Both the position numbers and the translations under genes were made by a program. A DNA stretch of 64,000 bases from positions 172,711 through 236,710 of the forward strand of contig JBGAKG010000005.1 in assembly GCA_044224495.1 (NCBI GenBank), given 5' to 3'. The stretch is from Polyangiaceae bacterium (GTDB lineage Bacteria > Myxococcota_A > Polyangia > Polyangiales > Polyangiaceae). The notes below the pieces were generated by a model. It searched no databases, was not told the DNA's origin, and worked only from the letters and a program-made list of their open reading frames with translations. This document shows positions 19,900-64,000 of the stretch, in pieces. Position 1 is the stretch's first letter, and every line of letters starts with the position of its first letter.

Positions 19900-19993
19900 G
19901 CTCCATCCGACGACACATGCGAGCGCACACGTGCGCACGAGCGGGAACACTCGCGGTCGATGAGCCACACGCACGTTCCTTTCTCGCGGCGCG

Positions 19994-36441: not shown

Positions 36442-36516
36442 GGGCGCATAACTCAGCGGTAGAGTGCATCCTTCACACGGATGAAGTCACAGGTTCAAAT
36501 CCTGTTGCGCCCACCA
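36442..36516 (+). tRNA. tRNA-Val (anticodon CAC)
   Basis: GGGCGCATAACTCAGCGGTAGAGTGCATCCTTCACACGGATGAAGTCACAGGTTCAAATCCTGTTGCGCCCACCA. Anticodon loop TTCACAC. Encoded CCA. Confidence 0.9.
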
Positions 36517-43955: not shown

Positions 43956-44453
43956 ATGTCGCCGTCCGTGGCCAAGAAGCTCTCCCTCCCCCTCTTCGAC
44001 GACATCACCCGCGCCGCCGGAGCGGCTCCGACGCTCGCCCGGGCGCGCCAGAAGCTCGGCGGCACCGGCACGACCGACGCGCGGGCGGGCACCCCGGTCC
44101 GCGACGGGACGGGGGCGATCGGGATCGTCCTCTATGCGGCGGGCGACGAGCTGGACGTGCTCGTCGGGAGCGGCGGCGTCGTCCGCCGCAGCACCGTCGC
44201 CCAGTGGTCCACCGTCGAGGCGGTCCCGAGCGAGCTCAGCACGGTCGCCGACTCCGTCGCGCGCTTCGCCCGGCTCCGCGAGGGCGATCGGGTAGGCTTC
44301 ACCCTCCCCGCGAGCCGCGGGAGCAACCGCGGCGAGGGCCTGCTGTTCGAGAAGTGTCGCTACGGGGCGCTCGTCGCGCGCGACGATCGCTCGATCGTCG
44401 CGGTCGGGTACAAGAGCCTCGCCGCCGTGCCGATGGAGAGTCGACTGTCGTGA
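43956..44453 (+). CDS. hypothetical protein (165 aa)
   Basis: Protein-like composition. Its stop overlaps the ygiQ-like GTG start (GTGA). Confidence 0.45.
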
Positions 44454-49297: not shown

Positions 49298-49320
49298 GGC
49301 CCGCAGCGTAGACGCGAACG

Positions 49321-50040
49321 TCAGGCTTCGTCGATCGCGGCGAGGCGCTCGATGGCGTCGGGCGCCGCGATTCGGAACCCCGCTTCCTCGGTCAGGATGA
49401 CCCCCGTCTTGTGCCAGCGGCTCAGGACGCGCGTCGCCGACTCGGGCGTCGTCCCGACGAGGGACGCGAGGTCGGAGCGCGACAGCGCGAGCGGGACCAT
49501 CACGTCTCCATCGTCCAGCTCGTCGCCGAAGCGCTCCGCGAGGTGGAGGAAGAGCGTCGCGAGTCGGTTCTCCACCTGCCCGGCACCGAGGATCCGGATG
49601 GTGCTCTGCAACGCGAGGTTGTGCTCGGCGAGCGACTGGTTGATCGCGTGAGCGATCGTCGTGTCGCGGAGCATGGCTTCGAGCAGCGCCCCCCGCTCGA
49701 TCCACAGGAGCTCCGCGAGCTCCGTGGCGACGACGGCGTCCGCCGGGTACGGGCGCCCGCGCACGACCGCCGCGTCACCGACGCTCTCGTGGGGACCGAA
49801 GATGCCGAGGATCGACGCGCGCCCGCTGCGGAGCGGCGCGGCGACCTTCACGACGCCGCTCGCGATCACCGAGAGCTCGCGCGCTTCGTCGCCGGCGCGC
49901 CAGAGGAGCTCGCCGCGCGCATGCCGACTCCGTCGGCTCGAACGTCCCAGCTCGGCGAGCGACGAGGCCTCGAGCGCCCCGAACACGCGCGAGACTCGGA
50001 GGATCTTCTGCGCACTCTCCACCCGTCCATCCGACACCAT
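49321..50040 (-). CDS. Crp/Fnr-family transcriptional regulator
   Basis: cNMP-binding-like beta-roll, then HTH LSRSDLASLVGTTPESATRVLSRW. Start ambiguous (Met at 50076, 50052 or 50040). Confidence 0.75.
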   Translation of the reverse strand: MVSDGRVESAQKILRVSRVFGALEASSLAELGRSSRRSRHARGELLWRAGDEARELSVIASGVVKVAAPLRSGRASILGIFGPHESVGDAAVVRGRPYPADAVVATELAELLWIERGALLEAMLRDTTIAHAINQSLAEHNLALQSTIRILGAGQVENRLATLFLHLAERFGDELDDGDVMVPLALSRSDLASLVGTTPESATRVLSRWHKTGVILTEEAGFRIAAPDAIERLAAIDEA

Positions 50041-50135
50041 GCTCCTCTTCATGCCGTCGCACGCAGGATTGTGCACTGACGCACGTCATCGCCCCCTTCG
50101 AAGGTGCACGGCACGCTGACGGTGGAGGTTCCGCC

Positions 50136-53100
50136 ATGCGTGCTCGTCCCGCTCTCGCGGTGCTCGTCGTCGCGCTCGCCGCCGCCGTGGCTCCCCAGCT
50201 CGCGTGCAGCTCCCACGACGTGCCGCAAGCCACCTACTTCGAGCGTGTCGTCTCGCCCGTGCTCCAGACGAGCTGCGCGCGGTCACCGACCGGCTCCGGC
50301 TGCCACGTCAGCGACGCGCGCGGCAACGCGTTCGGCAACCTCGACGTCACGAGCTTCGCGAACCTGAACAAGCGGCGGGACTTGCTCGCGACCTACGGTC
50401 CCTACCGACAGCCGAGCTTCCTCCTCAAGGTCATCCCGGAGCAGGAGATCGGGCTGCGGAGCTTCGACGGCACCGCGACCACGGTCCGGAGCGACGTGCG
50501 CCACACCGGCGGCTCGGTCTTCGACCCCAGTGCTTCGGGCTACCTCGTGCTCGCGCGTTGGATCGAGAACGGCGCGACCGAGAACAACAACGGGATCCGG
50601 ACCGTCCCCGTCGCCTCCGATCCGTGCTCGAGCACGGTGCCCGCCACGCCCGGCTTCGATCCGACGAAGGACCCGACGACCCCCGACTGGCCGACCTTCC
50701 GCGACACGGTGAACGCGCCCCTCGCGAACCGCTGCGGAGCGGGAAGCTGCCACGGCAACCCGATGAACGAGCTGTACCTGACCTGCGGCACGACGCCCGA
50801 GCAGACCCGGTTCAACTACTTCGCCGCCGTCGACTACCTCGGGAGCAGCCCCGATCAGTCGGAGCTCGTTCGGCGCCCGCTCGCGCAGACGTTCGGAGGC
50901 TCGTTCCACGAAGGCGGCGTCGTCTTCGAGACCTCGAGCGATCCCGACCTCGTCGCGCTCGAGGCGTGGGCCGAAAAGCACGGACCGCTCGTCGTCCCCG
51001 ACTTGGGGCCCGGCTTTTCGTACTTCGCGCGCCGCGTCCAGCCGGTGCTCGTGCGGAAGGGCTGCCTCCAGCTCCAGTGCCATTCGTCCTCGAGCTTCCA
51101 CGACTACCGGCTCCGCGGCGGTGCCGGCGGGAGCTTCTCGTTCTCGGCGACGCGCAAGAACTACGAGCTCAGCCTCGCTCAGCTCGCGCTCGAGAGCGAC
51201 GACCCGCGCGCGAGCAGGCTCGTGCGGAAGAACCTGTTCCGACCGGAGCTCGGAGGCGTCGGGATCGTCCATCGCGGCGGCCCCCTCTTCGAGGATCTCG
51301 GGAAAGATCCCGCCGTCGGGAGCTCGTGCGACGGCAAGGGATGGGACCTGGACGGTGGGAGCCTCGACACGATCCCCGCCTTCTGCATCGTCCGCGAGTG
51401 GCTGCGTCGCGAGCGCACCGCGCGGCCCGTCGCGCCGTGGACCGGCGTCGCCTTCGTCCGGCGCGCGCTCTCGAGCGCGCCCGATCGCCTCCAGGACTTC
51501 GACCTCTACCGACCCGGGAGCGATCTCCGTCTCGTCGACGTGCAGGTCGACGGAAGTGGCGCCGTCACCCTCGCGAACGAGCGCTCGGTGACGACGAGCT
51601 GCGGGCTCGATCCTTCGACCGCCGACATTCGCCGACCGGCCGTGTCGTGGGATGCGAAGCGGATCGCGTTCGCCGCCCGCGCTTCGGCGGGCGCGCCGCT
51701 CCGGATCTACGAGCTCGCAGCGGACGGGAGCGGTTGTACGCTCCACGCCGGCATCGGCACCGCGCCGCCGAGCGGCAACGGGCTCCCGATCCACGACTTC
51801 GATCCCAGCTTCGGGCCGCCCGATGGCAACGGTGTCGCCCCGATCGTCTTCGCGTCGACGCGCGGCAACCTCGACTCGACCCCGTACGACTACACCGGCC
51901 CCCAACGCACGCCGGCGGACCCGACGAAGCCGAACGCCGACCTCTACGTCTACGAGGCCGACCCGAAGAAGCCGGGCTCGTTCCGCATCCGGCAGCTCAC
52001 CTTCCTCCTCGACCTCGAGCGGCAGCCCGCCTTCATGGCGGACGGGCGCGTCATCTTCACGATCGAGAAGCGCCTCCCCGGGTTCCACCAGCTCGCCCTC
52101 CGTCGCATCAACCTCGACGGCGGCGACTACCACCCGCTCTTCGGCCAACGCGGGAGCGTGGGCTTCCACGCCGTGTCCCAGGTCGTGCAGCTCCCCGACA
52201 AGAACTTCGCCGCCATCTTCGCGGACCACGGTGTCCCCCATCGCGGCGGAACGCTCGGCGTGGTGAACCGCACGATCGGCGTCGACTTCGGCAGCACCGA
52301 CGCCGCGGACTATCCGCTCGATCCCGCGCTCGCGACGGGCACCTCGACGAAGCAACCGAGCCCGGCCTTCTTCCTCCACTCGCTGCGGATCGTCGACCCT
52401 GCCGTCACCGGTCGCGCGAACGTCGGCACGGCGGGCTTCTTTGCGTCGCCGGCGCCGCTCCCCGACGGGAGGATCCTCGCGAGCTTCGCCGCCGCGAGCG
52501 ACGCCGTGAGCTTCACCGGCGACTACGACGTCGTCATCGTCGACCCGAGCACCGGCGCGCGAACGCCGCTCCTCGGCGCTCCCGGCGTCGCCGACATCGA
52601 GGCGGTCGCCATCTACGGGCGCCCCATCCGCAAGGTCTACGCGTCGGCGCCATCGGAGCCGAACGCGTACGGCATGGACGAGACGCGCTCGACCGCCGAC
52701 ATCACGCTCCACGACGCGCCGACGATCCTCGCCCTCATGCTGCAGAACACGCCGGCGGGGCGCTCGGTCGACCCCGACGTTCGGTCACTGCGCTTGTTCG
52801 AGGAGCTCCCGCCTCCGCTGGAGGTCTCGAGCTTCGACCTCGGCGGGGCGAACGTCGTGACGGATGCATGGGGCAAGGTCTACGTGCGGCGCCGCTTGAT
52901 CGGGGCGGTGCCGATCGAGAGCGACGGCTCGGCACGCTACCTCGTCCCCGGCGGGCTCCCGCTCGCGCTCGAGGTCCCCGAGACCCCGATGTCGACGACG
53001 GCGAAGCTCCCGCGCTTCGTGAACGAGCACCTGATGTTCACGCCGGGAGAGTCCGTCCACGAGGCGTTCCCGCACGGCTTCTTCGACGGGTTCTGCGGGC

Positions 53101-53249
53101 AATGCCACGGCGCGACGAGCGGGCGGCCGCTCGACGCCGCGATGAAGCCCGACATCTTCTCCGGCGCCTCGCGCACGATCGCCGCCGGGCGGCCCGCGAC
53201 GAACCTGAACCTTGCTCCCGCGAGCCGCGGCGCTCCGGTCGGGCCATGA
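50136..53249 (+). CDS. large (1037 aa) lipoprotein with a single C-terminal CxxCH, unknown family
   Basis: Lipobox LACSS. One CxxCH (CGQCHGA) near the C-terminus. Stop overlaps the downstream cytochrome start (ATGA). Confidence 0.6.
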   Translation: MRARPALAVLVVALAAAVAPQLACSSHDVPQATYFERVVSPVLQTSCARSPTGSGCHVSDARGNAFGNLDVTSFANLNKRRDLLATYGPYRQPSFLLKVIPEQEIGLRSFDGTATTVRSDVRHTGGSVFDPSASGYLVLARWIENGATENNNGIRTVPVASDPCSSTVPATPGFDPTKDPTTPDWPTFRDTVNAPLANRCGAGSCHGNPMNELYLTCGTTPEQTRFNYFAAVDYLGSSPDQSELVRRPLAQTFGGSFHEGGVVFETSSDPDLVALEAWAEKHGPLVVPDLGPGFSYFARRVQPVLVRKGCLQLQCHSSSSFHDYRLRGGAGGSFSFSATRKNYELSLAQLALESDDPRASRLVRKNLFRPELGGVGIVHRGGPLFEDLGKDPAVGSSCDGKGWDLDGGSLDTIPAFCIVREWLRRERTARPVAPWTGVAFVRRALSSAPDRLQDFDLYRPGSDLRLVDVQVDGSGAVTLANERSVTTSCGLDPSTADIRRPAVSWDAKRIAFAARASAGAPLRIYELAADGSGCTLHAGIGTAPPSGNGLPIHDFDPSFGPPDGNGVAPIVFASTRGNLDSTPYDYTGPQRTPADPTKPNADLYVYEADPKKPGSFRIRQLTFLLDLERQPAFMADGRVIFTIEKRLPGFHQLALRRINLDGGDYHPLFGQRGSVGFHAVSQVVQLPDKNFAAIFADHGVPHRGGTLGVVNRTIGVDFGSTDAADYPLDPALATGTSTKQPSPAFFLHSLRIVDPAVTGRANVGTAGFFASPAPLPDGRILASFAAASDAVSFTGDYDVVIVDPSTGARTPLLGAPGVADIEAVAIYGRPIRKVYASAPSEPNAYGMDETRSTADITLHDAPTILALMLQNTPAGRSVDPDVRSLRLFEELPPPLEVSSFDLGGANVVTDAWGKVYVRRRLIGAVPIESDGSARYLVPGGLPLALEVPETPMSTTAKLPRFVNEHLMFTPGESVHEAFPHGFFDGFCGQCHGATSGRPLDAAMKPDIFSGASRTIAAGRPATNLNLAPASRGAPVGP

Positions 53250-54994
53250 CCCGCTGGCGCGAGCGAGCCACGCTCGTCCTCACCGCCACGCTCCTCGGCG
53301 CCGGTACGGCAGGCGCCGCGTGCTCCAGCGACGACGAGCTCGCGCCGGGGAGCGATGCCGGGAGCGACGTCTTCGTCGAGGCGCAAGACGACCCGACGAC
53401 CGAGCTCGGGCCGTCGACGGATGGGGGCGACGCCGAAGGCCCGATCGATCTCGAGGACTTTCACGTTCCCGGCACGCAGATCGGCGACGTCCCCTGGGCG
53501 GCGCTGCTGCGACCGTCCGACTGCACGTCGTGCCACGGCGCAACGACGACGCCCGCCGCCCCCGGGCCCACCTGGTCGGCGAGCTTGATGTCGGTCGCAG
53601 GAAAGGACCCGCTCTTCTACGCGCAGCTCGCGACCGCGAATCAGGACGTCCCCGGGGTCGGCTACTACTGCCTGCGCTGCCACGTCCCCGCGTCGATCGT
53701 GACGGGCAACGCCGCGATCCCGAGCGGAAAGGTCCTCTCGAACTACGATCGCGACGGAGTCAGCTGCCACTTCTGTCACATGATGGTCGACCCGACGCTG
53801 CCGGATGCGGCCCCGAGCCAGGACGCACCGATCCTGGCAGCGCTCGCCGATCGGCCGTCCCATTTTGGTAACGCGCAGTTCGTCCTCGATCCCGGCGGGC
53901 TCCGGCGCGGTCCCTACGTCGACGCCGCTGCGCTGCACCCCTACACGTCTTCGCCCTTCTTCCGGCGGAGCGAGCTGTGCGGGACGTGTCACGACGTGGG
54001 GAACCCGGCCGTCCCCGCGACGGATGCCGGCTTCGCCTACGATCCTCCCAAGCAGCGCGCCGCGAACCCCGACCCGGTCGCGCAGTTCCCGCTCGAGCGC
54101 ACCTTCTCCGAGTGGCGCGCCTCCGCGTTCGCCGACGGCGGCGTCGACATGGGCGGGCGCTTCGGCGGGGCCGACGGCGGCGTCGTCTCGACGTGCCAGG
54201 ACTGCCACATGCCGGTCGAGACGTCGCAGGGCTGCATCTTCGGCCCGAGCCGGACGGATCTGAGGCGCCACGACTTCGCGGGCGCATCGGCGTGGGTGCT
54301 CGACATCGTGTCCCTTCGCGAGGGGGCCAACGTCGATCAACCCGCCCTCGCGCGCGGCCACACCAATGCGGTCGCGATGCTGCAGCGCGCGGCCACGCTC
54401 ACGGTCTCGAAGAACGGGGCGCAGGTGGTCGTCCGGGTCACCAACGAGAGCGGGCACAAGCTCCCGACGGGCCACATCGAGGGGCGCCGCGTCTTCCTCG
54501 AGGTCAAGTTCACCGACGGCGCCAACGCGGTGCTCACCCACCACGGGCGCTGGAACCCGGCGACGGGAGATCTCGAAGGCGCGCCGACGACCGTGTTCGA
54601 GATGGAGATCGGGCTCAGCCCCACCGCCGCGAAGCTCACCGGCCTGCCCGCCGGCCCGACCACGCACATGTCGCTCGCCGACGTGGTCGTCTCGGACAAT
54701 CGCATCCCGCCGCGGGGCTTCAGCAACGTGGCGTTCGGTGCCGTCGGTGCGGGCGCCGTCGGTGCGACGTACGCCGACGGCCAGCACTGGGCCGACGTCC
54801 CGTTCGCGATCCCGAACGGCGCGACGAAGGTCGAGGTTCGGTTGCTCTACCAGACCGTGACGCGCGAGTACGTCGAGGCGCTCGCGAAAGGGAACAAGAC
54901 CGACGGTTGGGGAACGGAGCTCCAGAGCTTGTGGCTCGCGACGGGTCGTGCGCCGCCGATCGAGATGGCGTCCACCCAGCTCTCCCTCCCGTGA
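53246..54994 (+). CDS. pentaheme c-type cytochrome lipoprotein (paralog of 18330..19727)
   Basis: Lipobox GAACSS. CTSCH, CLRCH, CHFCH, CGTCH, CQDCH. Shares RTFSEWR and CHMP motifs with the other cytochrome. Confidence 0.8.
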   Translation: MTRWRERATLVLTATLLGAGTAGAACSSDDELAPGSDAGSDVFVEAQDDPTTELGPSTDGGDAEGPIDLEDFHVPGTQIGDVPWAALLRPSDCTSCHGATTTPAAPGPTWSASLMSVAGKDPLFYAQLATANQDVPGVGYYCLRCHVPASIVTGNAAIPSGKVLSNYDRDGVSCHFCHMMVDPTLPDAAPSQDAPILAALADRPSHFGNAQFVLDPGGLRRGPYVDAAALHPYTSSPFFRRSELCGTCHDVGNPAVPATDAGFAYDPPKQRAANPDPVAQFPLERTFSEWRASAFADGGVDMGGRFGGADGGVVSTCQDCHMPVETSQGCIFGPSRTDLRRHDFAGASAWVLDIVSLREGANVDQPALARGHTNAVAMLQRAATLTVSKNGAQVVVRVTNESGHKLPTGHIEGRRVFLEVKFTDGANAVLTHHGRWNPATGDLEGAPTTVFEMEIGLSPTAAKLTGLPAGPTTHMSLADVVVSDNRIPPRGFSNVAFGAVGAGAVGATYADGQHWADVPFAIPNGATKVEVRLLYQTVTREYVEALAKGNKTDGWGTELQSLWLATGRAPPIEMASTQLSLP

Positions 54995-56028
54995 ACGGCG
55001 ATCGCACCCGAAGCGCGATCCGCGGATGGCTCACCGCGTGCGCCGTCCTCACGGCGGCGATGATCCTCCTCGGCGGGCTCACACGGCTCACCCGCGCCGG
55101 CCTCTCGATCACGACGTGGGATCCGGTGATGGGAGCGCTCCCTCCCCTCGATCACGGAGCGTGGGAGCACGCGTTCGAGCTCTATCGCTCGTCCCCCGAA
55201 GGGCGGCTCCGCGCCGACGCGATGGACCTCGGCGCGTTCCAGCACATCTACTGGATCGAGTGGGCACACCGCCTGCTCGGACGTGCGCTCGCGGTGGTGC
55301 TGTTCGGTCCGCTCGTCGTCTTCGCTGCGCGGCGCAGCCTCCCGCGCACGGTCACGCTCCGCCTCGGGCTGGTGTTCGTCGCGGGCGGGGTCCAGGCCCT
55401 GCTCGGCTGGCTCATGGTCCAGAGCGGGCTCGTCGATGCCCCGCACGTCAGCCCGTACCGCTTGGCGGGGCACTTCACGCTCGGCGTCGCGCTCTTCGTG
55501 GCCATGCTCTGGAGCGCATTCGACGCGTGGGCGACGGACGCTGCCGTCGTCGAGCGCACGCCGGCGCGCCTCCGGCTCCTCGCTTTCGTCGCCGGTGCCA
55601 ACGCATTCGCCCTCCTCGTCTGGGGCGCGCTGATGGCGGGGCACCACGCCGGGCTCGTCTTCTCCGACTTTCCGATGATGGGCGGCCGAGTCGTGCCGAG
55701 CGGCGCCTTCGCGAACGGCTCGCTCGGGGGCGCTGCGGTCGGCGACGCGATCACGGTCCACTTCATCCATCGCATGCTCGCGTTCGCGCTCGTCGCCCTC
55801 GCCGGCGCCCTGGTCGTCGTCTCGCGCAGCGCGCCGGTGGCGCCGACGACGCGGCGCTGGGCCCTCGTCGTGCTCGCAGCCGTGCTCGTTCAGCTCGCGC
55901 TCGGCGCCGCGACGGTGATGACCCACGTGCCGCTCGCGCTCGCGTCCGCTCATCAAGCCGGCGCGCTGTTCGTCGTCTTCGCGCTGACGGGCCTCGTGCG
56001 TCGTACCAGCGCCGGGCCTGCACTATAG
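54991..56028 (+). CDS. ctaA: heme A synthase (COX15/CtaA, type 2)
   Basis: Eight TM helices. Conserved His motifs WAHRLLGR and IHRMLAF. GTG start overlaps the upstream stop. Confidence 0.8.
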   Translation: MNGDRTRSAIRGWLTACAVLTAAMILLGGLTRLTRAGLSITTWDPVMGALPPLDHGAWEHAFELYRSSPEGRLRADAMDLGAFQHIYWIEWAHRLLGRALAVVLFGPLVVFAARRSLPRTVTLRLGLVFVAGGVQALLGWLMVQSGLVDAPHVSPYRLAGHFTLGVALFVAMLWSAFDAWATDAAVVERTPARLRLLAFVAGANAFALLVWGALMAGHHAGLVFSDFPMMGGRVVPSGAFANGSLGGAAVGDAITVHFIHRMLAFALVALAGALVVVSRSAPVAPTTRRWALVVLAAVLVQLALGAATVMTHVPLALASAHQAGALFVVFALTGLVRRTSAGPAL

Positions 56029-56081
56029 CTACGTGATCCGCGTCATGGCAGCGCGCGTCGCCGTGCGCGAAGGTCGAAGCG

Positions 56082-57767
56082 ATGATGCTCGCGGCCCTCG
56101 AGAGCGACCGACCTGCTCCGCGCGCGCAGGGCACGATCGTCGAAGCGCTCGCGGCCGCTGCGGCCGCAGATGCGCCGCTGGCGACGTTCCACGGCGGGAG
56201 CGCCGGCCCGACCGTGCTGGATGCGCGGGCCACGTTCGCGCGGGCGAACGCCTGGGCCCAGCGCCTCGTTGCGCGCGGCGTCCGGCGGGGCGACCGCGTC
56301 GTGATCCTGGTCCCCACCGGACCCACGTTCGTCGCGGCGTTGCTCGGCGCGATGATGGCGGGTGCCGCCGCCGTTCCGCTCGCGACGCCGCTGACCTTCG
56401 GCTCGGTGGAGCCGTTCCTGCGCAACCTGGGGCCGATCCTCCTCTCGGCGGATGCCCGCGCGCTCGTCACGACGCCGCGCGTGCTCGGGACGCTCGCGTC
56501 GCACCGCGGCAGCCTCCACGTCCCGACCGCCGTCCTCGTCGATGGCGACGAGCCTTCGCCTGAACCGCGTCCGCTCCCGAGCGTCGACCCCCAAGACACG
56601 GCCCTCATCCAGTACACGTCGGGGACGACCGGGTTGCCGAAGGGCGTCGTCATCTCGCACCGCGCGCTCGTCGCCAACGCCGCGTCGATCGCCGAGGGTC
56701 TCGGGCTCGACGCGCGGGACGTCGGCGTCAGCTGGCTCCCGCTCTTCCACGACATGGGCCTGGTCGGCGTCCTGCTCACGGCCGTGTGTCACCCCTACGC
56801 GCTGCACCTCGCCGCGCCCGAGTACTTCGCGATGGGTGCCGAGCGCTGGCTCCACCTCATCGCTCGGGTCGGCGCGACCATCACCGCCGCCCCCAATTTC
56901 GCGTACCAACGCTGCGTGGCGCGCGCGGCGCGGCTCGAAGGCGTCCGCCTGGATGCGCTGCGGCTCGCCTTGAACGGCGCCGAGCCGGTCCACGCCGAGA
57001 CGCTTCGTCGGCTCGCCGCCACGCTCGCCCCGCACGGCTTCGCGCCGACCGCATCCCTCCCCGTCTACGGGATGGCCGAGTGCACGCTCGCGGTGACGTT
57101 CGCCGACCGCGGCGCGCCCCACGCGTTGAAGCTCGACCGTGGCGGGCTCGAGCGCGAAGGAATCGCCTGCGCCAGCACGGCGCCCGAGGCGCGCGAGGTC
57201 GTGAGCGTCGGGCGCCCGGTCGCCGGAGCCGCGATCCGCGTCGTCGACTCGGGACGCGCCACGGTCCCCAACGGGCGCGTCGGGCGGATCCTCGTGCGCT
57301 CTCCCTCGCTGATGGACGGCTACTTCCGCAACGAAGCGGCCACGCGCGCCGTCCTCGCCGACGGGTGGCTCGACTCCGGCGATCTCGGCTTCGTCGCGGA
57401 CGGTCAGCTCTACGTGACGGGACGCGCGAAGGACGTCGTGATCCAGGGCGGACGCAACATCGACCCCCACGACGTCGAGCGAACGCTCGAGACGGAGTGC
57501 GGGCTCCGCCCCGACAGCGTCGTCGCGTTCGGCGTTTCCGATTCCAGCGTCGCGACGGAGCGGCTCGTGCTGGTCGTCGAGGCGAAACCGACGGAGGAGG
57601 AACGCTCTGACGCGCGCGCCCGCGAGCTCCGGGGCGCCGTCCTCGCCGCGCTCGGCGCACGGATCGACGAGGTGATCTTCGTCGCGCTCGGGTCGATCCC
57701 CCGCACCACGAGCGGCAAGCCGCGCCGCGCCGAGTGCGCGCGCCTCCACGCGGAGGCGCGTTCGTGA
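56082..57767 (+). CDS. fatty acyl-AMP ligase / AMP-dependent synthetase (FAAL-like)
   Basis: YTSGTTGLPKGV. LPLFHDMGL. YGMAE. GDLG...GRAKD. SGKPRR C-terminus. This motif set is typical of FAAL/FadD32-type loaders. Confidence 0.85.
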   Translation: MMLAALESDRPAPRAQGTIVEALAAAAAADAPLATFHGGSAGPTVLDARATFARANAWAQRLVARGVRRGDRVVILVPTGPTFVAALLGAMMAGAAAVPLATPLTFGSVEPFLRNLGPILLSADARALVTTPRVLGTLASHRGSLHVPTAVLVDGDEPSPEPRPLPSVDPQDTALIQYTSGTTGLPKGVVISHRALVANAASIAEGLGLDARDVGVSWLPLFHDMGLVGVLLTAVCHPYALHLAAPEYFAMGAERWLHLIARVGATITAAPNFAYQRCVARAARLEGVRLDALRLALNGAEPVHAETLRRLAATLAPHGFAPTASLPVYGMAECTLAVTFADRGAPHALKLDRGGLEREGIACASTAPEAREVVSVGRPVAGAAIRVVDSGRATVPNGRVGRILVRSPSLMDGYFRNEAATRAVLADGWLDSGDLGFVADGQLYVTGRAKDVVIQGGRNIDPHDVERTLETECGLRPDSVVAFGVSDSSVATERLVLVVEAKPTEEERSDARARELRGAVLAALGARIDEVIFVALGSIPRTTSGKPRRAECARLHAEARS

Positions 57768-58774
57768 AGCGCGCCGTCGTCGTCGGGGGAACGGGGTTCA
57801 TCGGCCTTCACGTCGTCGATGCGCTGCTCGCCGGAGGCTGGACCGTGCGCGCGACGCGTCGCCCCTCGTCGCCGACGCTCCTGCTCCGGCGCCGCCCGGT
57901 CGAGCTCGTCCACGCGGATCTCGACGACGAGGCGTCGCTCGAGCGCGCGTTCGACGGCGCGGACGCGGTCTTCCTCGCGGGCGCGTACTACCCCCGCTAC
58001 TCGCTGGAGCTCGCCGGTGCCGTCGAGCGCGGAACGGCGCAGCTCCGGCGCGCATGTACCGTCGCGCGCAAGGCCGGCGTCGCGCGCCTGATCTACAGCT
58101 CGTCGGTCGCCGTCCTCGGCCCCGGAGCGAGCGTCGCCACCGAAGCGGACGTCGGCGAGCCCGATCCGCGCGAGGGCGTGTACCCGACCGTAAAGAAGAC
58201 GATGGAACGGGAGCTCGACCGCGCGCGCGACGCGGGCCTCTCCGCGACCTCGCTCCTGCTCGGCGGGTGCATCGGCCCTTGGGATCTCCGCCTCGGCACG
58301 GGCGGGTTCGTCGCCGCGCTCCTCGCCGGCGCGCCCCTCCGGTGGACCGACGGGCTCGTCCACCTCGTCGCCGTGTCCGATGCCGCACGCGCCCATGTCG
58401 CCGCGGTCGGGAGCGACGCCCCGCGCTACCTCGTCGCCGGCAAGAGCCTCCGCGTCGCCGAGCTCGTCGCGATGGTCGTCGAGCGCCACGGCGCCGCGCA
58501 CCCGGGCGATCCGGTCTCGCTCGCCTCCGCCCGCGAGCTCGCGACGCGGAGCGAAGCCGCCGCCGCCCCGCGCCGCCGCCGCGTCACCCTCCCGCGCGAG
58601 CTCGTCGACATCGTCGCGCTCGGTCGCCCGATCTCGACCCAGCTCGCCGAGCGGGATCTGGATCTCCGCTGGACCCCCCTCGAGGCGGCGCTCGACGCGT
58701 TCGTCGCGTGGCTCATCCGGCACCGCTACGTCCCCCGAATCCCCGCCTCCAGGAGTGATCACAATGTCGTCTGA
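57764..58774 (+). CDS. NAD(P)-dependent epimerase/dehydratase-family (extended SDR) oxidoreductase
   Basis: Rossmann GGTGFIG. YxxxK (YPTVKK). GTG start overlaps the FAAL stop. Confidence 0.8.
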   Translation: MKRAVVVGGTGFIGLHVVDALLAGGWTVRATRRPSSPTLLLRRRPVELVHADLDDEASLERAFDGADAVFLAGAYYPRYSLELAGAVERGTAQLRRACTVARKAGVARLIYSSSVAVLGPGASVATEADVGEPDPREGVYPTVKKTMERELDRARDAGLSATSLLLGGCIGPWDLRLGTGGFVAALLAGAPLRWTDGLVHLVAVSDAARAHVAAVGSDAPRYLVAGKSLRVAELVAMVVERHGAAHPGDPVSLASARELATRSEAAAAPRRRRVTLPRELVDIVALGRPISTQLAERDLDLRWTPLEAALDAFVAWLIRHRYVPRIPASRSDHNVV

Positions 58775-59048
58775 ACCGGCCACCACGTCGATCCGCGGGC
58801 GCATGCGCGCGCTCGTCGCCGAGATCCTCGAGATCGAGCAAGACCGCATCGAGCCGCAGAGCCGCCTCCGCGAGGATCTCGGCATGGACTCGCTCGGGAG
58901 CCTCGAGATGCTCTCCACGATCAGCGAGCAACTCGACGTGCACCTCGAGATCGAGGAGGCGATGGACATCGTCACGTTCGACGACGCCTGCCGCTTCGTC
59001 GAACGACAGCTCCCCGAAGCCAGGGTGGTCCATGAGCACCGCGCCTGA
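58764..59048 (+). CDS. acyl carrier protein (stand-alone)
   Basis: AGGAG RBS lies 9 nt upstream. Phosphopantetheine site DLGMDSL. 94 aa. Confidence 0.8.
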   Translation: MSSEPATTSIRGRMRALVAEILEIEQDRIEPQSRLREDLGMDSLGSLEMLSTISEQLDVHLEIEEAMDIVTFDDACRFVERQLPEARVVHEHRA

Positions 59049-60537
59049 CCCGGCGTTCGAGCTCGCGCGTCAGGTCGCCCGCTGGTGCACCGCCCACGTC
59101 GATGCGGCCGCGCTCGAGGCCGGGGGCGAGATTCCGGGTCGGCTCCTCGACGGGCTCGCCGCGCTCGGCCTGTTCGCGATGACGCTCCCCGCGAAGCACG
59201 ACGGCGCGGAGCTGGGATTGGCCTCCGCCTGCCACGTCGTGGAGGAGCTCGCGCGTCACGATCGCTCCGTTGCGACGACCGTCGGCCTGCACGCGGGGCT
59301 GGGCACGCAAGCGGTGGTCCGCGGCGCACGGCCCGAGCTGGGCGCGGCGTGGCTGCCGCGCCTGGCGAGCGGGGCCGCGATTGGGGCGTTCGCCGCGACC
59401 GAGGCCGGTGCCGGCTCGGATCTCATGAGCATCCGGACTGCCCTCATCGACGATGGGAACGAGCTCTACCTCGACGGCGAGAAGAGCTACGTCACCAACG
59501 CCCGCTACGCGGGCTGCTTCACCGTCCTCGCGCGGCGCGGACCGCGCGGACACTCGCTCGTCCTCGTCCCGCGCAGCGCGGCCGGGATCACGATCGGGCC
59601 GGAGGAGTCGAAGCTCGGCTTGCGCGCGTCGTCGACTGCGACCGTACGCTTCGACGCCGTTCGCCTCCCGCGTCACCACGTGCTCGGCGCCGATGGCCGC
59701 GGGCTCGAGCTCGCCTATCAGGTGCTCGGCTGGGGGCGAACGATGATGGCGGCCGGATGCACCGGGACGGCGCGGGCCGCCTTGGCGGCGACGCTCGATC
59801 ACGTCGACCACCGCCGGCAGTTCCGCCGCTCGCTCTTGTCGTTCCCCGCCGTCCAGCTCCAAGTGGCGGAGATGGCGGCGCTGACCGAGGCGTCACGCGC
59901 CTTCGTGCGACGAGTCGCGACGACCCTCGATCGCGGCACCGATGCCGAGATGCTCTCGATGGCGCTCAAGGTCTTCGCGAGCGAACAAGCGTTTCGCGCG
60001 TGCGACACCGCGATCCAGCTCCACGGAGCGCTCGGCGTCATCGAGCCCGTCGGGGTCGCGCGCCTCCTCCGCGACTGCCGCGTCACTCGGATCTTCGAGG
60101 GCGCGAACGACGTGCTTCTGGTCCGCCTCGCGACGGCGCGCCTCGCGACCGCGGCGCCGCTCGAGCGCGCGAACGCCAGCGTCGGGCGCGACGAGGCCGC
60201 GCATCTCCACCGCATGGCCGACGCGATCGACGCCGCTACCGCGGACGTGCGGCGGCGAATGGGCTTCGCCGCCGTGACCCGCCAGGCGACGCTCGTCGGG
60301 CTCGCGCGGGCCGAGCTCGCGTACCAGGCGGCGCTCGCGCTCGCGCTCGATCCGCCGCGCGACGAGGATCTCGCCGCGGTCGGGATCGCTGCGCTCGAGC
60401 GCGACGCGCATGTCGCGCTCGAGTCGCTCGACGCCGCCGAAGCGACCGCCGTCCGCGCGGACCGCATCTGCAACCGCCTCCGCAGCGCACCCGCCGGAGG
60501 CACGGCTGCGGCGCCGCTCACCGAGAGGACCGCATGA
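59032..60537 (+). CDS. acyl-CoA/acyl-ACP dehydrogenase family protein
   Basis: ACAD fold signatures (ATEAGAGSD, YVTNA, catalytic-base region IFEGANDV). Extra C-terminal about 110 aa. Start overlaps the ACP stop. Confidence 0.8.
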   Translation: MSTAPDPAFELARQVARWCTAHVDAAALEAGGEIPGRLLDGLAALGLFAMTLPAKHDGAELGLASACHVVEELARHDRSVATTVGLHAGLGTQAVVRGARPELGAAWLPRLASGAAIGAFAATEAGAGSDLMSIRTALIDDGNELYLDGEKSYVTNARYAGCFTVLARRGPRGHSLVLVPRSAAGITIGPEESKLGLRASSTATVRFDAVRLPRHHVLGADGRGLELAYQVLGWGRTMMAAGCTGTARAALAATLDHVDHRRQFRRSLLSFPAVQLQVAEMAALTEASRAFVRRVATTLDRGTDAEMLSMALKVFASEQAFRACDTAIQLHGALGVIEPVGVARLLRDCRVTRIFEGANDVLLVRLATARLATAAPLERANASVGRDEAAHLHRMADAIDAATADVRRRMGFAAVTRQATLVGLARAELAYQAALALALDPPRDEDLAAVGIAALERDAHVALESLDAAEATAVRADRICNRLRSAPAGGTAAAPLTERTA

Positions 60538-61841
60538 CCCCCGACCGCCGGCGAAGAGTCCGCTTCGTCTACCCCAAGTTCTCGCGCCACGCGGAGGCTC
60601 ACCCCGAGCTCCTCGACGCGGTCCCGTGCAACGAGTACTTCGGTCCACCGTCGCTCGGCATCGCCTGCCTCGCCGCGGTCACGCCGCCGGAGTGGGAGCT
60701 CGACTTCCGCGACGATCGCCTCGAAGACGTCGGCCTCGACGACGACGTCGATCTCGTTGCCATCTCGTGCTTCACCCCCTCCGCGACACGCGCGCTCGAG
60801 CTCGCAGACGCGTTCCGCGCGCGCGGACGCAAGGTCGTGATGGGTGGGATCTTCCCGACGATGGTCCCCCACGAGGCCGAGGCCCACGCCGACGCCGTCG
60901 TCCTCGGCGAGGGAGAAAGCGTGTGGCCGACCGTCCTCGCCGATGCCGCGCGCGGCAGCCTCCAGCGCCGCTACCAGGCGACGAGCGCCGTCGACCTCGC
61001 GACGCTCCCGCAACCGCGGATCGACCTCTACGTGAACAAGGAAGGCCGCTCCTTCGCGCCCGACGACTACCCGGTCCAGACGTCGCGCGGCTGCCCGCTC
61101 GCGTGCTTCGCCTGCGCCATCCCCGGCGTGATGGGGAAGAAGATGCGCTACTACCCCGTCGAGCACGTCGTCGAGCAGCTCGACCGGCTCGGGAGCTTCG
61201 GGAAGCTCGGCTCGCTCACGGAGGACACGACCTTCTTCCCGGTCGCGGCGAAGCACCTCGAGGCGATCCTCGACGCCATCCACGCGCGCGGAACCCCTGC
61301 CTCGGTCAGCTACCTCGGCGTGAGCATGCCGATGATCCTCGCGACCCCAGCGGCGCGCCTCCGGCGCATGCGCGACGCCGGCATCCGCATGTTCTACCTC
61401 GTGGGCGGGTTCGACGACGTCACCATGAACGCGTTCTCCGGGACCGACGCTCGCGCCCACGGGCGCGCAGTCGATGCGATCGCGAAGGCCCACGACCACG
61501 GCATCGAGCCCTACACGTCGTTCCTCGTCGGGAACGACGGCGACGACGAAGGCGTCTTCGATCGGATGCTCGAGTTCGCCAACGCGACCAAGATCGCGAA
61601 GGCGGAGTTCGCGATCCTCACGCCCTACCCTGGGACGCCCGTCTACGGGCGGCTCGCGAAGGAGGAGCGCATCCTCACGCGCCGCTGGTCGCTCTACAAC
61701 GACGCCAACGTCGTGTTCCGCCCGGCGAAGATGACGCCCGAGCGTCTGCTCGCGGGCTACCTCTACCTGTGGCGGGAGTTCTACCGCTCGCGCCAGGAGC
61801 TGCGCGAAGCCGGCCGCGAGGCGCGGACGATTCAGTTCTGA
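60534..61841 (+). CDS. B12-binding-domain radical SAM protein (class B)
   Basis: N-terminal B12-binding Rossmann (DLVAISCFT...VVMGGIFPT). CxxxCxxC (SRGCPLACFAC). ATG overlaps the ACAD stop (ATGA). Confidence 0.8.
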   Translation: MTPDRRRRVRFVYPKFSRHAEAHPELLDAVPCNEYFGPPSLGIACLAAVTPPEWELDFRDDRLEDVGLDDDVDLVAISCFTPSATRALELADAFRARGRKVVMGGIFPTMVPHEAEAHADAVVLGEGESVWPTVLADAARGSLQRRYQATSAVDLATLPQPRIDLYVNKEGRSFAPDDYPVQTSRGCPLACFACAIPGVMGKKMRYYPVEHVVEQLDRLGSFGKLGSLTEDTTFFPVAAKHLEAILDAIHARGTPASVSYLGVSMPMILATPAARLRRMRDAGIRMFYLVGGFDDVTMNAFSGTDARAHGRAVDAIAKAHDHGIEPYTSFLVGNDGDDEGVFDRMLEFANATKIAKAEFAILTPYPGTPVYGRLAKEERILTRRWSLYNDANVVFRPAKMTPERLLAGYLYLWREFYRSRQELREAGREARTIQF

Positions 61842-61858
61842 GCGCGCTGCGGAGCTCT

Positions 61859-62836
61859 TCAATGCGGCGGGCAACCGCAGTCCGGCGTCGTCGGGTGCAT
61901 CGGGCACGAGCTCGGGCGTCCCCACGCCCACACGACGCCCATCGTCCCGCCGAACGCCGTCGGCTCGTTCTGCCCGAGGCCTTCGACGTGGGGCGTCCAC
62001 GACGCACCGAGCGTGAGCCGCAGGCCCCGCCCGAGCGGAAACGCGGCCGACACGCCGACGGTCGAACGCGCGGTCGCGGAGCCGTCGACGGACTCGCCCT
62101 CCTGCGCGGCGGCGAGCGAAGCTTCGTAGCCGACCGTCGCCCCTACCGACACTCCGCGCCCGAGCGACCAGCCGACGGCCGCGAACGTCGCGAAGAGCGG
62201 ACCGAGCCGCGTGCTCACCCCACGGACGTCGCGCGCTCCACGGAGCGCGATCGTCCCGCTCAGGCTCACGAACACGGGGCCGAACGCCTGCTCGAGCGCG
62301 AGGCCGTTCTCCCACTGCACCACGCCCACGCCCGTGGCGTCCGTCGCGAGCGGGCGATGCGCGGCATCGGCGGCGACGCCGGTCGGCAACACCAGCGACG
62401 AGAGCACTTGGATCCGGGGCACGCCCTTCGTCGTACCAAGTTGGGACAGCGTCCAGCGAGAGCCGACACGCACGTCCCCGAGCCCGCCTCCGACGTCGCT
62501 CGCTCCGCCGGCCTGGCGAATCGTCTCGACGAGCGGGAGCGAGAGCGACAGCTCCGCGCGGCTCCACGGCGCCCAGCCGATCACCAAGCGCTGGCTCAGA
62601 TCGACCTCCCGTGAGCCCTCGGACGGAGCGCGAAAGCTCCGATCCGCGCCCCACGAGCCGGTCACCGCCGACGCCGACGCAACGAGCCCGACGAGCGCGT
62701 CCTCGTTCGGCTGGAGGCGCGTCGGGGCGAAGCCGCTCGGGCTCGCGCAGCACGCCTGGGCAGCTGCCAGACGCGGCACGAGCAGGAGCGCGAGGCCGAG
62801 GAGCGCGCTAGCGCACGTCGAGGACGATCGTCGCAT
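61859..62836 (-). CDS. secreted hypothetical protein
   Basis: Signal peptide ALLGLALLLVPRLAAAQA. Beta-rich Gly/Ser/Val composition. Cys-rich C-terminus CPMHPTTPDCGCPPH. Confidence 0.5.
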   Translation of the reverse strand: MRRSSSTCASALLGLALLLVPRLAAAQACCASPSGFAPTRLQPNEDALVGLVASASAVTGSWGADRSFRAPSEGSREVDLSQRLVIGWAPWSRAELSLSLPLVETIRQAGGASDVGGGLGDVRVGSRWTLSQLGTTKGVPRIQVLSSLVLPTGVAADAAHRPLATDATGVGVVQWENGLALEQAFGPVFVSLSGTIALRGARDVRGVSTRLGPLFATFAAVGWSLGRGVSVGATVGYEASLAAAQEGESVDGSATARSTVGVSAAFPLGRGLRLTLGASWTPHVEGLGQNEPTAFGGTMGVVWAWGRPSSCPMHPTTPDCGCPPH

Positions 62837-63260
62837 CTTCGTTCATGCTCCCGCCGAGGTGCGTGTGGAGCTCCCACGTCCCCGCCATGTAGAGGCTCAC
62901 CTCGTGCGCCACGTAGACCCCGCCGCCCATCGGTTCGACCGTCGGGTGGACCGAGGAGCCGTGGCCATGCGCCGGCATCATCGGGGTCAGCTCGATCGCC
63001 AACCCATCCATCGCGACGCCGTCGGCCCCGGTCACCGTCAGCTCGACCATGTTCACGCCGACCTGGGGCGGCTGGGGCGACGTTCGGACGGCGACCGTGC
63101 ACGCACCGCCGCTCGAGGTCACGCGCGCGTAGGTCGGCCCCGAGAACGTCGCCGCGGGGGTCGCCGCCGAGCTGCAGGCGAGCACCGCCGCCAGGGCCAT
63201 GGCGCCGAGCGGACGGAGCGGACGGAGCGGACGGAGGAAGAAGCCCAGCGAGGTAGCCAT
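62808..63260 (-). CDS. YtkA/CtaK-like periplasmic lipoprotein (putative Cu chaperone; paralog of 17828..18325)
   Basis: Lipobox AAVLACSS. Motif TPMMPAHGHGSSVHPTV. Signal n-region LRPLRPLRPL is encoded by a 9-nt tandem repeat. Confidence 0.6.
   Translation of the reverse strand: MATSLGFFLRPLRPLRPLGAMALAAVLACSSAATPAATFSGPTYARVTSSGGACTVAVRTSPQPPQVGVNMVELTVTGADGVAMDGLAIELTPMMPAHGHGSSVHPTVEPMGGGVYVAHEVSLYMAGTWELHTHLGGSMNEDATIVLDVR
63207..63236 (-). repeat. 9-nt tandem repeat (gagcggacg)x3 within the lipoprotein signal-peptide coding region
   Basis: Plus strand reads gagcggacggagcggacggagcggacggagg, translating on the minus strand to (LRP)n. Confidence 0.7.
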
Positions 63261-63343
63261 GCCCGAGACTTTGCGTCCGGGGTCGCCCGGGGGCGATGAC
63301 GTCCGTCAGGGCGGCCCCCGCCGACCGGGCCTACGGAGGAGTC

Positions 63344-64000
63344 ATGGTCCCGCTCGTCATGCTGCGCCGCCCGCCCCGACAGGCCGGGCCCGGCGCTCCG
63401 TCGCCGTCGAGCCCCTCTGCGGGCGACGGCGTACCCGTCTTCCGGCTCGGTTTCCGCCCCTTCTTCCTGGCCGCGGGGGCGTTCGCCATCGTCGTGGTCC
63501 CGCTCTGGCTCCTGGTCTGGAGCGGGCGCGTCTCCCTCCCCTCCACCGCGACCGTACCGACCAACTGGCACGCCCACGAGATGGTGTTCGGCTTCACGGG
63601 CGCCGTGATCGCCGGGTTCCTGCTCACCGCGGTCCGCAACTGGACGAATCGGCCCACCCCGAGCGGCGCTCCTCTCGCCGGGCTCGTCCTGCTCTGGGCC
63701 CTCGGCCGGATCGGGCTCCTGGTCGACGGTCTCCTCCCCCACGCCCTCGTCGCCACCGTCGACGTGGCCTTCTTTCCCGCCGTCGCCCTCGCGGTCGGGC
63801 GCCCGATCGCGAGCGCCCGAAACTGGCGGAACCTGGGCTTCGTCCCTCTCCTCCTGGCGCTCGCCGCGGCCGACGTCGTCTTCCACGTCGTCCCCACGTG
63901 GTCGCTCCGCGTCACGCGCAGCGCGCTCGACGTGGTGCTCGTGATCGTCGCCGTCGTCGGTGGGCGCGTCATCCCCTCGTTCACGGAGAGCGCGCTCGGC
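63344..64000 (+). CDS. nnrS: NnrS-family heme-copper membrane protein; 3' end lies beyond the window
   Basis: GGAGGAG RBS. FRLGFRPFFLAAGAFAIVVVPLWLLVW...NWHAHEMVFGF...AGFLLTAVRNWT matches NnrS N-terminal helices. Not in the ORF list because there is no stop before the window end. Confidence 0.7.
   Translation, partial: MVPLVMLRRPPRQAGPGAPSPSSPSAGDGVPVFRLGFRPFFLAAGAFAIVVVPLWLLVWSGRVSLPSTATVPTNWHAHEMVFGFTGAVIAGFLLTAVRNWTNRPTPSGAPLAGLVLLWALGRIGLLVDGLLPHALVATVDVAFFPAVALAVGRPIASARNWRNLGFVPLLLALAAADVVFHVVPTWSLRVTRSALDVVLVIVAVVGGRVIPSFTESALG

Follow-up and report, generated by a model that had tools for sequence, protein, structure and literature searches.

A conserved five-gene cassette of Myxococcota predicted to tailor acyl chains on its own carrier protein

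What might a bacterium make with a fatty acid-activating ligase, a private carrier protein, a flavin-dependent dehydrogenase, a reductase and a B12-type radical enzyme, when the genes for all five overlap one another on the same strand? The question is raised by a stretch of 64,000 nucleotides from a Polyangiaceae bacterium (assembly GCA_044224495.1, contig JBGAKG010000005.1, positions 172,711 to 236,710), here called the window, which carries such a cassette at positions 56082-61841. A sequence-only reading made earlier had described the five genes as an operon for acyl tailoring that belongs to no characterised pathway. Our analysis favours an answer along these lines: the genes would form a self-contained lipid-tailoring module built around its own acyl carrier protein (ACP), and we assign the full stepwise model set out below a probability of about 0.55. 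The more general statement, that the predicted proteins act together on an acyl chain tethered to the ACP, is very likely.

Because the GC content of the window is ~72%, raw lists of open reading frames are full of spurious frames, and coding frames were picked with a frame plot of GC at third codon positions (GC3). The plot supported five consecutive genes in the frames proposed earlier:

56082-57767, + strand: fatty acyl-AMP ligase (FAAL), 561 aa (PF00501, PRK09192 and PDB matches)
57764-58774, + strand: NADPH-type extended short-chain dehydrogenase/reductase (SDR) of the cinnamoyl-CoA/dihydroflavonol/aldehyde reductase type, 336 aa (PF01370, NmrA, 3Beta_HSD)
58764-59048, + strand: stand-alone ACP, 94 aa (PF00550)
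59032-60537, + strand: flavoprotein of the acyl-CoA dehydrogenase (ACAD) family, 501 aa (PF02771, PF02770, PF00441)
60534-61841, + strand: radical S-adenosylmethionine enzyme (rSAM) with an N-terminal B12-binding-type domain, 435 aa (PF02310, PF04055)

The FAAL and SDR genes overlap in GTGA at 57764, where a Shine-Dalgarno motif, GGAGG, lies 8 nt before the GTG, and the SDR and ACP genes overlap by 11 nt (ATG at 58764, AGGAG upstream). Overlaps of 17 nt (ATG at 59032) and of the ATGA type at 60534 (GAGAGGA upstream) join the ACP gene to the ACAD gene and the latter to the rSAM gene, respectively. Gene calls were identical in an independent assembly of the same DNA (L001 in our numbering of related loci), and orthologous operons show similar overlaps of 1-23 nt (e.g., L083 and L084). 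The junction check reproduces the four overlaps on which the sequence-only reading was built, and its five domain identities were recovered with Pfam and NCBIfam. That reading had also stated that no ketosynthase (KS) or acyltransferase (AT), nonribosomal peptide synthetase (NRPS), Spt or glycerol-acyltransferase gene lies adjacent. Domain searches extended this to the whole window, which has no KS, AT, NRPS, Spt or acyltransferase genes, and it likewise has no squalene-hopene cyclase or hpn genes. With such partner genes missing, the cassette falls outside the polyketide synthase (PKS), ceramide and elb layouts, as had been claimed.

If the five genes act together, they would be expected to stay together. 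One genome per species was scanned, giving 189 loci, of which 80 were kept for analysis; the five window proteins were compared with the kept loci by tblastn, and the following counts come from the 57 loci in which the sequence ahead of the rSAM gene spans 4.7 kb or more, nearly all of them from MAGs (metagenome-assembled genomes) of uncultured Myxococcota. The exact order FAAL-SDR-ACP-ACAD-rSAM occurs in 40 of these, and an SDR, ACP or ACAD gene lies beside the rSAM gene in 53/57, in line with the earlier proposal of one co-conserved unit. In the two loci where the rSAM gene is alone, it looks like a second copy, because the same MAG also has a full cassette (L007/L017 and L019/L016). Partner identities track that of the rSAM (r = 0.91 for SDR, 0.83 for ACP, 0.77 for FAAL and 0.65 for ACAD), which fits inheritance as a unit. 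The flanking genes vary widely from locus to locus, and hence we take the five genes to be the module. For every partner, the catalytic residues named below show no variation over 48-62 orthologues. Homologues of the rSAM fall into more than 1300 protein clusters; the top 120 are 62-76% identical to it, and those among them that carry a name all come from MAGs of Myxococcota, Polyangiales or Sandaracinaceae. Of the five genes, FAAL varies most, being absent from the stored flanks in ~10 loci and relocated in a few others, and a FabF-like KS occupies its position in L077-L079. The conserved core is SDR-ACP-ACAD-rSAM.

Several variations on this layout were seen. Second copies of the rSAM (L007 with L017, L016 with L019, L010, L018 and L024) are 63-66% identical to the window rSAM, are without SDR, ACP or ACAD genes, and have unrelated neighbours, such as a beta-helix protein, CheB/CheR and a strictosidine-synthase-like protein. 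A DAO-type flavoprotein gene follows the rSAM gene in six cassette loci. One subclade of 9-11 loci, including L039 (7002-8216), L043, L049, L055, L061, L066, L069 and L071, has a second rSAM (~405 aa, motif CNIYCEGC) that is without a B12 domain and is encoded directly after the B12-type rSAM; it has only weak NirJ2-like and Tes-like matches (~60 bits), and a LuxR-type regulator gene is often next. Directly after the rSAM gene of L002 (CP064980.1, Myxococcales bacterium, 51% GC), and in this locus only, lies a gene of the PF04116 fatty acid hydroxylase family (11383-12126). In L084, ~6 kb downstream of the cassette (17721-21293), genes encode an enoyl-CoA hydratase-HGD-D fusion, a second HGD-D protein and a BcrAD/BadFG-type activator, an architecture that resembles the anaerobic plasmalogen/ether-lipid enzymes PlsA/PlsR (Ger). 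A further locus, labelled Candidatus Kuenenia stuttgartiensis (L067, DYIT01000192.1; gene order FAAL-ACP-rSAM-ACAD), was rejected as evidence for the cassette in anammox bacteria: its GC content is 62%, compared with roughly 41% for Kuenenia, and it is probably misbinned.

How a chain might enter the pathway is suggested by the first and third genes. The ligase matches PF00501 with 225 bits, and AMP-binding_C is not matched in Pfam. Among NCBIfam models, PRK09192 ('fatty acyl-AMP ligase') ranks first with 425 bits, short of its cutoff of 600. Escherichia coli FAAL (3PBK) is the closest PDB entry, aligning end to end with 299 bits, and the top 10 PDB matches are all FAALs (200-299 bits), with FadD23, FadD32, FadD28 and a Legionella FAAL after 3PBK. 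CoA ligases reach ~110 bits in alignments that are interrupted at residues ~330-360; the 3PBK alignment runs without gaps over 345-385. Compared with the acyl-CoA synthetase (FACS) encoded elsewhere in the window (47765-49705), the protein has ~24 extra residues at 338-372 (boundaries approximate), and this region matches the FAAL-specific insertion of the N-terminal domain that is absent from CoA ligases (PMC11837247). The A3 motif is conserved, and the A10 lysine (Lys546) is invariant in 48/48 orthologues. The insertion check suggested earlier therefore came out in favour of the proposal it accompanied, and from these alignments the ligase is classed as FAAL type, not FACS type. The ACP matches PF00550 with 48.8 bits, the phosphopantetheine serine of its D-S-L motif (Ser43) is invariant in 56/56 orthologues, and its gene lies within the overlapping operon in at least 56 loci.

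The two redox partners were characterised in the same way. The ACAD-family protein scores above the cutoffs of PF02771, PF02770 and PF00441, and its catalytic glutamate (Glu356, in R-I-F-E-G-A-N) is invariant in 62/62 orthologues. Its closest PDB matches, at 206 bits, are human very-long-chain acyl-CoA dehydrogenase (VLCAD) and ACAD9, which are long-chain enzymes. It bears a C-terminal extension of ~130 aa and does not reach the models for MbtN (NF037942, 43.5 bits against a cutoff of 700) or the prolyl-peptidyl carrier protein (PCP) dehydrogenase RedW (184 bits against 650). The SDR matches PF01370, NmrA and 3Beta_HSD and falls short of HpnA (TIGR03466, 134.5 bits against 367.65). Its GxxGxxG motif, Tyr140-x3-Lys144 and Arg33 are all invariant across orthologues, and Arg33, which follows the second strand, suggests a preference for NADP(H); the protein is predicted to be an active NADPH-type reductase. 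Homologues are labelled 'dihydroflavonol-4-reductase' by JGI. An AlphaFold 2 (AF2) model of the SDR (mean predicted local distance difference test score, pLDDT, of 94) gave as top Foldseek matches the Gluconobacter carbonyl reductase Gox2253, cinnamoyl-CoA reductases (CCR), cinnamyl alcohol dehydrogenase 2 (CAD2), dihydroflavonol reductase (DFR) and a PKS thioreductase domain. The modelled fold thus appears nearest to NADPH-dependent carbonyl and thioester reductases and would be compatible with reductive release.

The fifth protein, the rSAM, exceeds the Pfam gathering scores for B12-binding (PF02310, 45 bits against 32.1) and for PF04055 (41.8 bits against 29.5), and its motif C187-x3-C191-x2-C194 is invariant across orthologues. 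In a Foldseek search with the AF2 model (pLDDT 88), the top match was AprD4 (template modelling (TM) score of 0.73, E-value of 4e-19), which is also one of only two PDB sequence matches. Next came the B12 methylases MgmA, TsrM, CysS and TokK, and both the rSAM core and the B12-type domain fold were aligned. The PDB titles of CysS and TokK show pantetheinylated substrates in the crystals. With its CxxxCxxC motif, rSAM core and N-terminal B12-binding-type domain, the enzyme is predicted to be of class-B type, and cobalamin is a putative ligand. No NCBIfam model was reached: the best was TIGR04013 (64 bits against 251), and scores were lower for the ladderane-type TIGR04072 (55.3 against 360), the MCR glutamine methylase family (50 against 360), BchE (47 against 481), HpnJ (TIGR03471, 41.8 against 577.6) and the AprD4 family (NF033070, 38.8 against 500).

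Wider relatives of the rSAM are informative about its substrate. An exhaustive HMMER search of 1.84 billion representatives (threshold E ≤ 1e-30) returned a clade of 962 proteins, in which the score declines without a sharp drop. At 37-39% identity, the clade includes two proteins in which the rSAM is fused to FabF-type KS domains (P0245 and P0248) and one in which it is fused to a CrtI-family phytoene-desaturase-type flavoprotein (P0276); these KS- and CrtI-fused relatives score 42-71 bits on TIGR04072 and do not reach its cutoff. A sister clade at ~40% identity comes mostly from Myxococcota and 'Deltaproteobacteria' MAGs. Its rSAM gene lies ahead of two double-KS proteins in L085 (9001-15109) and, in L087 (9001-18600), together with genes for a KS, an ACP, a GCV_T-like protein, a 4HBT thioesterase, a ketoreductase and an AT. 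Given the fusions, the sister operons, the KS of L077-L079 and the DAO-type neighbours, the clade is repeatedly tied to ACP- and fatty acid synthase-type machinery and to a flavin-dependent C-C desaturase. This wiring is the strongest evidence that the substrate is an ACP-bound acyl chain and that desaturation is coupled to the radical chemistry. The fused and KS-associated relatives seem to represent another lipid system of this rSAM clade, so far uncharacterised.

The pathway that we consider to account best for these features would run in four steps. FAAL would adenylate a free, probably long-chain, fatty acid and load it onto the dedicated ACP rather than onto CoA, a step for which the enzyme type is evident from sequence and the substrate is presumed. 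The VLCAD-like flavoprotein would then remove the 2,3-hydrogens of the ACP-bound chain, yielding 2-enoyl-ACP; this desaturation is probable, and the operon context suggests that the substrate is bound to ACP and not to CoA. The class-B-type rSAM would act on the tethered, desaturated chain. Among its possible reactions, the likeliest would be cobalamin-mediated C-methylation at or next to the activated end, with radical C-C bond formation or rearrangement as alternatives, and assignment as a methylase is tentative, at odds of about one in three. Lastly, the CCR/DFR-like SDR might reduce the thioester, releasing an aldehyde, or else a keto or enoyl intermediate; the chance that it is the releasing enzyme is somewhat below even. 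The product would be a modified fatty acyl compound, such as an aldehyde or alcohol, probably serving as a membrane or cell-envelope lipid component and not as a strain-specific antibiotic. From the distribution of orthologues, it would be made by many uncultured Polyangiales, Sandaracinaceae and other Myxococcota.

A more far-reaching version of this pathway is unlikely, although it would be an undescribed biosynthetic route: a branch or ring might be added to a preformed fatty acid, which would be re-loaded onto a private ACP, desaturated by a flavoprotein independently of O2, and alkylated or cyclised by a cobalamin-dependent rSAM. If true, this could be a source of methyl-branched or otherwise unusual lipids in uncultured Myxococcota, possibly including extra methylation of the type found in branched glycerol dialkyl glycerol tetraethers (brGDGTs). 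It might be induced under low oxygen or nitric oxide (NO), together with a haem A synthase and Crp/FNR regulators, and the KS- and CrtI-fused relatives would represent further versions, mechanistically related to the unsolved ladderane problem.

The surroundings of the cassette bear on how it may be regulated. The other features of the window mentioned in this analysis are as follows:

13795-13867, - strand: tRNA gene (Rfam)
36442-36513, + strand: tRNA gene (Rfam)
44204-46405, + strand: YgiQ-family radical SAM protein (Radical_SAM_N and DUF3362)
47765-49705, - strand: FACS with an AMP-binding_C domain
49321-50076, - strand: Crp/FNR-family regulator, divergent from the + strand array (cNMP_binding, HTH_Crp_2 and Crp domains)
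50136-53249, + strand: 1037-aa lipoprotein with haem-c-like Cys motifs (lipoprotein signal and CxxCH motifs in the translation)
53246-54994, + strand: multihaem c-type cytochrome (CxxCH motifs; weak ExtKL-type multihaem match)
54991-56028, + strand: COX15/CtaA-family haem A synthase homologue (PF02628, 286 bits)
61859-62836, - strand: secreted 325-aa protein without a Pfam or NCBIfam match
62808-63260, - strand: YtkA-domain lipoprotein

Upstream, the lipoprotein, cytochrome and CtaA genes lie on the same strand as the cassette, with 4-nt overlaps between neighbours (the GTG start of CtaA overlaps the stop of the cytochrome gene), and a gap of 53 nt separates the end of CtaA from the start of FAAL. 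Because these three overlap-coupled genes stop only 53 nt before FAAL, the transcription unit may be eight genes long, from the lipoprotein through the rSAM. Downstream lie the genes for the 325-aa protein (- strand), the YtkA-domain protein and then NnrS. The haem A synthase, Cu-chaperone-like lipoprotein and NnrS that the sequence-only reading had named as flanks are therefore all present, the second as the YtkA-domain protein. Scans of 49000-63500 for promoter and terminator consensus sequences gave nothing usable in DNA of 72% GC, and an Rfam scan of the window found no cobalamin riboswitch and no RNA besides the two tRNAs. The 325-aa protein gene overlaps the YtkA-domain gene by 29 nt; its homologues occur within ~9 kb of the cassette in L003, L053, L059 and L065, with a YtkA gene alongside in L003. 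The FACS and YgiQ-family genes are located 6-12 kb upstream, and neither is kept beside the cassette elsewhere. The remainder of the window is typically myxobacterial, with several Ser/Thr kinases, sigma-54 activators with FHA domains and DUF4132.

Some of these neighbours recur at other loci. As in the window, a CtaA-family gene adjoins the cassette in 13 further loci, mostly in the same direction and in at least two different positions: upstream of FAAL (L003, L004 and L012/L084, with a 4-nt overlap with the FAAL start in L084), directly after the rSAM gene (L027, L030, L031, L033 and L041) or one gene further beyond it (L035 and L037); it is on the opposite strand in L015, L036 and L055. 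In L084, nosZ/D/F/Y lie ahead of the CtaA gene. Crp/FNR-family genes occur within ~7 kb of the cassette in 18 other loci as well as in the window, and a cytochrome-like large lipoprotein is encoded near it in nine. An AhbD-like SPASM rSAM (TIGR04053), of a family akin to the haem b synthase AhbD, is found in six loci and also on the window's contig just past NnrS, where the independent assembly (L001, 7843-10022, just past the window end) gives 399 bits against a cutoff of 395. Beyond NnrS and the TIGR04053 gene, L001 continues with a 362-aa protein without a family match, a Crp regulator, hemerythrin, cytochrome c and nosF/Y-like ABC genes. Of 51 loci of at least 15 kb, 25 carry one or more of these markers. 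With no genomic baseline to set them against, and with loci that share ancestry, these counts should be read as a lead, not as statistics. They suggest that the cassette may be regulated together with respiratory, low-oxygen or NO functions or, less probably, that it has a role linked to haem or a cofactor. CtaA is a possible operon partner and an uncertain member of the pathway. The earlier interpretation of the cassette as an acyl-tailoring module found partial support, with an SDR fold compatible with reductive release, and the haem A synthase gene that it had listed among the flanks is not a neutral one. An E. coli-type FNR box (TTGAT-N4-ATCAA, up to two mismatches) was found neither upstream of 50136 nor upstream of 56082. 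The 59-nt divergent intergenic region has a near-palindrome, TGTGC-N6-GCACG, at 50070-50085. A 450-aa membrane protein encoded upstream of FAAL in six loci was considered as NnrS and dropped, as it has no Pfam match.

Several observations weigh against the four-step pathway and leave room for other explanations. All orthologues found stem from MAGs. The cassette has no hydratase, acyltransferase or thioesterase; the lack of the latter two would be explained if reductive release freed the product as an aldehyde. The loci in which FAAL is missing suggest that the chain may sometimes arrive by another route, and the recurrent CtaA, Crp/FNR and cytochrome neighbours are not accounted for by a plain lipid pathway. 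Moreover, the rSAM lies below the cutoff of every NCBIfam model for characterised B12-rSAMs, and its top structural match, AprD4, has a B12-like domain yet is known as a cobalamin-free diol dehydratase partnered with an NADPH reductase. Methylation is therefore not the default reading of the rSAM, and a deoxygenation or rearrangement was kept in consideration. In AprD4/AprD3, an rSAM dehydratase is paired with an NADPH-dependent reductase that acts with it on paromamine, and by analogy the cassette rSAM could be a cobalamin-independent radical dehydratase or mutase that turns an oxygenated acyl-ACP into a ketone for reduction by the SDR. The leading position of AprD4 in both the fold and PDB sequence comparisons would fit such a pairing, as would the co-evolution of SDR and rSAM, which is tighter than for any other partner (r = 0.91). 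We nonetheless regard it as improbable: the AprD4 family model is far from being reached (38.8 bits against 500), the N-terminal domain passes the B12-binding gathering score, unlike a generic Rossmann domain, B12 methylases follow close behind in the fold search, and the cassette encodes no hydroxylase or hydratase that could supply a diol or hydroxy substrate. Equally improbable is that the module supplies starter units, handing a modified acyl-ACP to an NRPS, PKS or acyltransferase encoded in trans, as for mycobactin or lipopeptide tails. The combination of FAAL, ACP and ACAD follows the logic of mbt-2 and of lipopeptide-tail desaturation (PMC11837247), the cassette has no obvious release enzyme, and a KS adjoins the core in L077-L079. 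Against this, the ~57 well-flanked loci have neither an NRPS nor a modular PKS within 10 kb of the cassette and the window has none at all, the MbtN model is missed by a wide gap (43 bits against 700), and the SDR could release the product itself. The cassette is also single, syntenic and widespread over families, unlike strain-specific biosynthetic gene clusters.

Two further explanations were considered. The genes could belong to a haem, respiratory-cofactor or low-oxygen programme, making a lipid moiety or cofactor together with CtaA and cytochromes under Crp/FNR control, or the rSAM could be a BchE-like tetrapyrrole enzyme. The adjacency of CtaA in the window and 13 loci (with the 4-nt overlap at the FAAL start in L084), the Crp/FNR genes of 18 loci and the window, the AhbD-like SPASM rSAM, NnrS and nos genes in the vicinity, and the weak BchE and HpnJ matches of the rSAM all point this way. 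Yet about three quarters of the loci have no nearby CtaA and half have no marker at all, no E. coli-type FNR box lies upstream, the FAAL, ACP and VLCAD-like ACAD indicate a fatty acyl substrate, and the fusion partners seen in relatives of the rSAM are of the KS and CrtI types rather than tetrapyrrole enzymes; we consider this explanation quite improbable. Least probable is a catabolic module that activates an unusual carboxylic acid for breakdown of the beta-oxidation kind, the rSAM removing or rearranging a blocking group. Although the ligase, ACAD and dehydrogenase resemble the early enzymes of beta-oxidation and a separate FACS is encoded 6 kb upstream, hydratase and thiolase are absent, and the SDR belongs with NADPH-type reductases like CCR and DFR rather than with 3-hydroxyacyl dehydrogenases. 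Biosynthesis is also what a private ACP and a FAAL, a ligase type that avoids CoA, typically signal (PMC11837247).

The acyl-tailoring pathway, if borne out, would matter beyond this locus. Few lipid-modifying radical SAM enzymes are known. The cassette is compact (five genes, 5.8 kb, no large synthases) and is kept in at least 189 species-level genomes, making it a tractable entry point. Once its chemistry is known, a large B12-rSAM clade that is associated with lipids and still unnamed (962 representatives at 50% clustering) would have its first assigned function, and the origin of a lipid biomarker made by uncultured Myxococcota abundant in soil and freshwater could come to light. The cassette could also offer a mechanistic handle on systems that combine KS, desaturase and rSAM, including the ladderane question.

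Comparison with known systems places the cassette between several of them and inside none: membership of the HpnA/HpnJ, OleC/OleD, MbtN, ladderane TIGR04072, AprD4 and ceramide systems was considered and rejected on model scores and missing partner genes. In the mycobactin mbt-2 cluster, the FAAL MbtM loads a fatty acid on the ACP MbtL and the acyl-ACP dehydrogenase MbtN desaturates the tethered chain at C2-C3, and similar trios serve lipopeptide tails. The cassette resembles mbt-2 in its stand-alone FAAL, predicted to load a dedicated ACP, and its ACAD-family enzyme. It differs in having no acyltransferase (MbtK) or NRPS, in adding a B12-type rSAM and an extended SDR, and in its VLCAD-like ACAD with a C-terminal extension (43 bits against 700 for MbtN; the ligase reaches 290 bits against 621 for the MbtM model). 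CloN3-N6/CouN3-N6 of clorobiocin and coumermycin comprise an adenylating enzyme, a carrier protein, an ACAD-like dehydrogenase and the B12-rSAM C-methyltransferase CloN6. The cassette would share this four-part logic of adenylation, tethering, ACAD-family oxidation and cobalamin-rSAM C-methylation, whereas the substrate of CloN/CouN is proline, converted to 5-methylpyrrole-2-carboxylate, and these systems are not known to have an SDR partner; moreover, the cassette ligase is a FAAL, and its ACAD resembles VLCAD more closely than it does the prolyl-PCP dehydrogenases (RedW, 184 bits against 650). AprD4/AprD3 likewise pairs an rSAM with an NADPH reductase and provides the best structural match (TM 0.73), but it acts on an aminoglycoside without the help of a carrier protein, FAAL or ACAD, and the cassette rSAM stays below the cutoff of its family model (38.8 bits against 500). 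The bacterial ceramide cluster (Spt-ACP-ACS-CerR) also has an adenylating enzyme, a dedicated ACP and an extended-SDR reductase side by side. A pyridoxal phosphate (PLP)-dependent Spt or ceramide synthase occurs in neither the window nor the related loci, and no aminotransferase-class gene is present in the window or among the recurrent neighbours of the related loci; ACAD and rSAM are found instead.

The proposed ladderane gene set of anammox bacteria, of which the function is unproven, comprises amxACP, FabF homologues, a phytoene-desaturase-like enzyme and a B12-rSAM (TIGR04072) (PMC13459092, section 5). An ACP-bound chain, a flavin desaturase and a B12-type rSAM would be brought together in both systems, and relatives of the cassette rSAM are fused to FabF- and CrtI-like partners. 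The cassette differs in that TIGR04072 is not reached (55 bits against 360), in its ACAD desaturase, FAAL loading and SDR, and in its hosts, which are Myxococcota and in many cases probably aerobes. A 2026 review of lipid-modifying radical SAM enzymes covers Tes, Mss, Gms, Grs, Gmm, Cds, HpnH/J/P/R, Jaw5 and the unsolved ladderane enzymes, none of which works on a FAAL-loaded acyl-ACP (PMC13459092). Neither that review nor the FAAL surveys (PMC11837247 and PMC12820801) mention such a cassette. As the sequence-only reading had supposed, we found no described pathway with the FAAL-SDR-ACP-ACAD-rSAM layout in the literature, where coverage of subscription journals was incomplete, so that absence is not proof. 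All five enzyme families and the FAAL-ACP-ACAD trio are already known; the novelty lies in joining this trio, in a fixed arrangement, to a B12-type rSAM and a CCR-like SDR, in a module that stands alone and is widely conserved.

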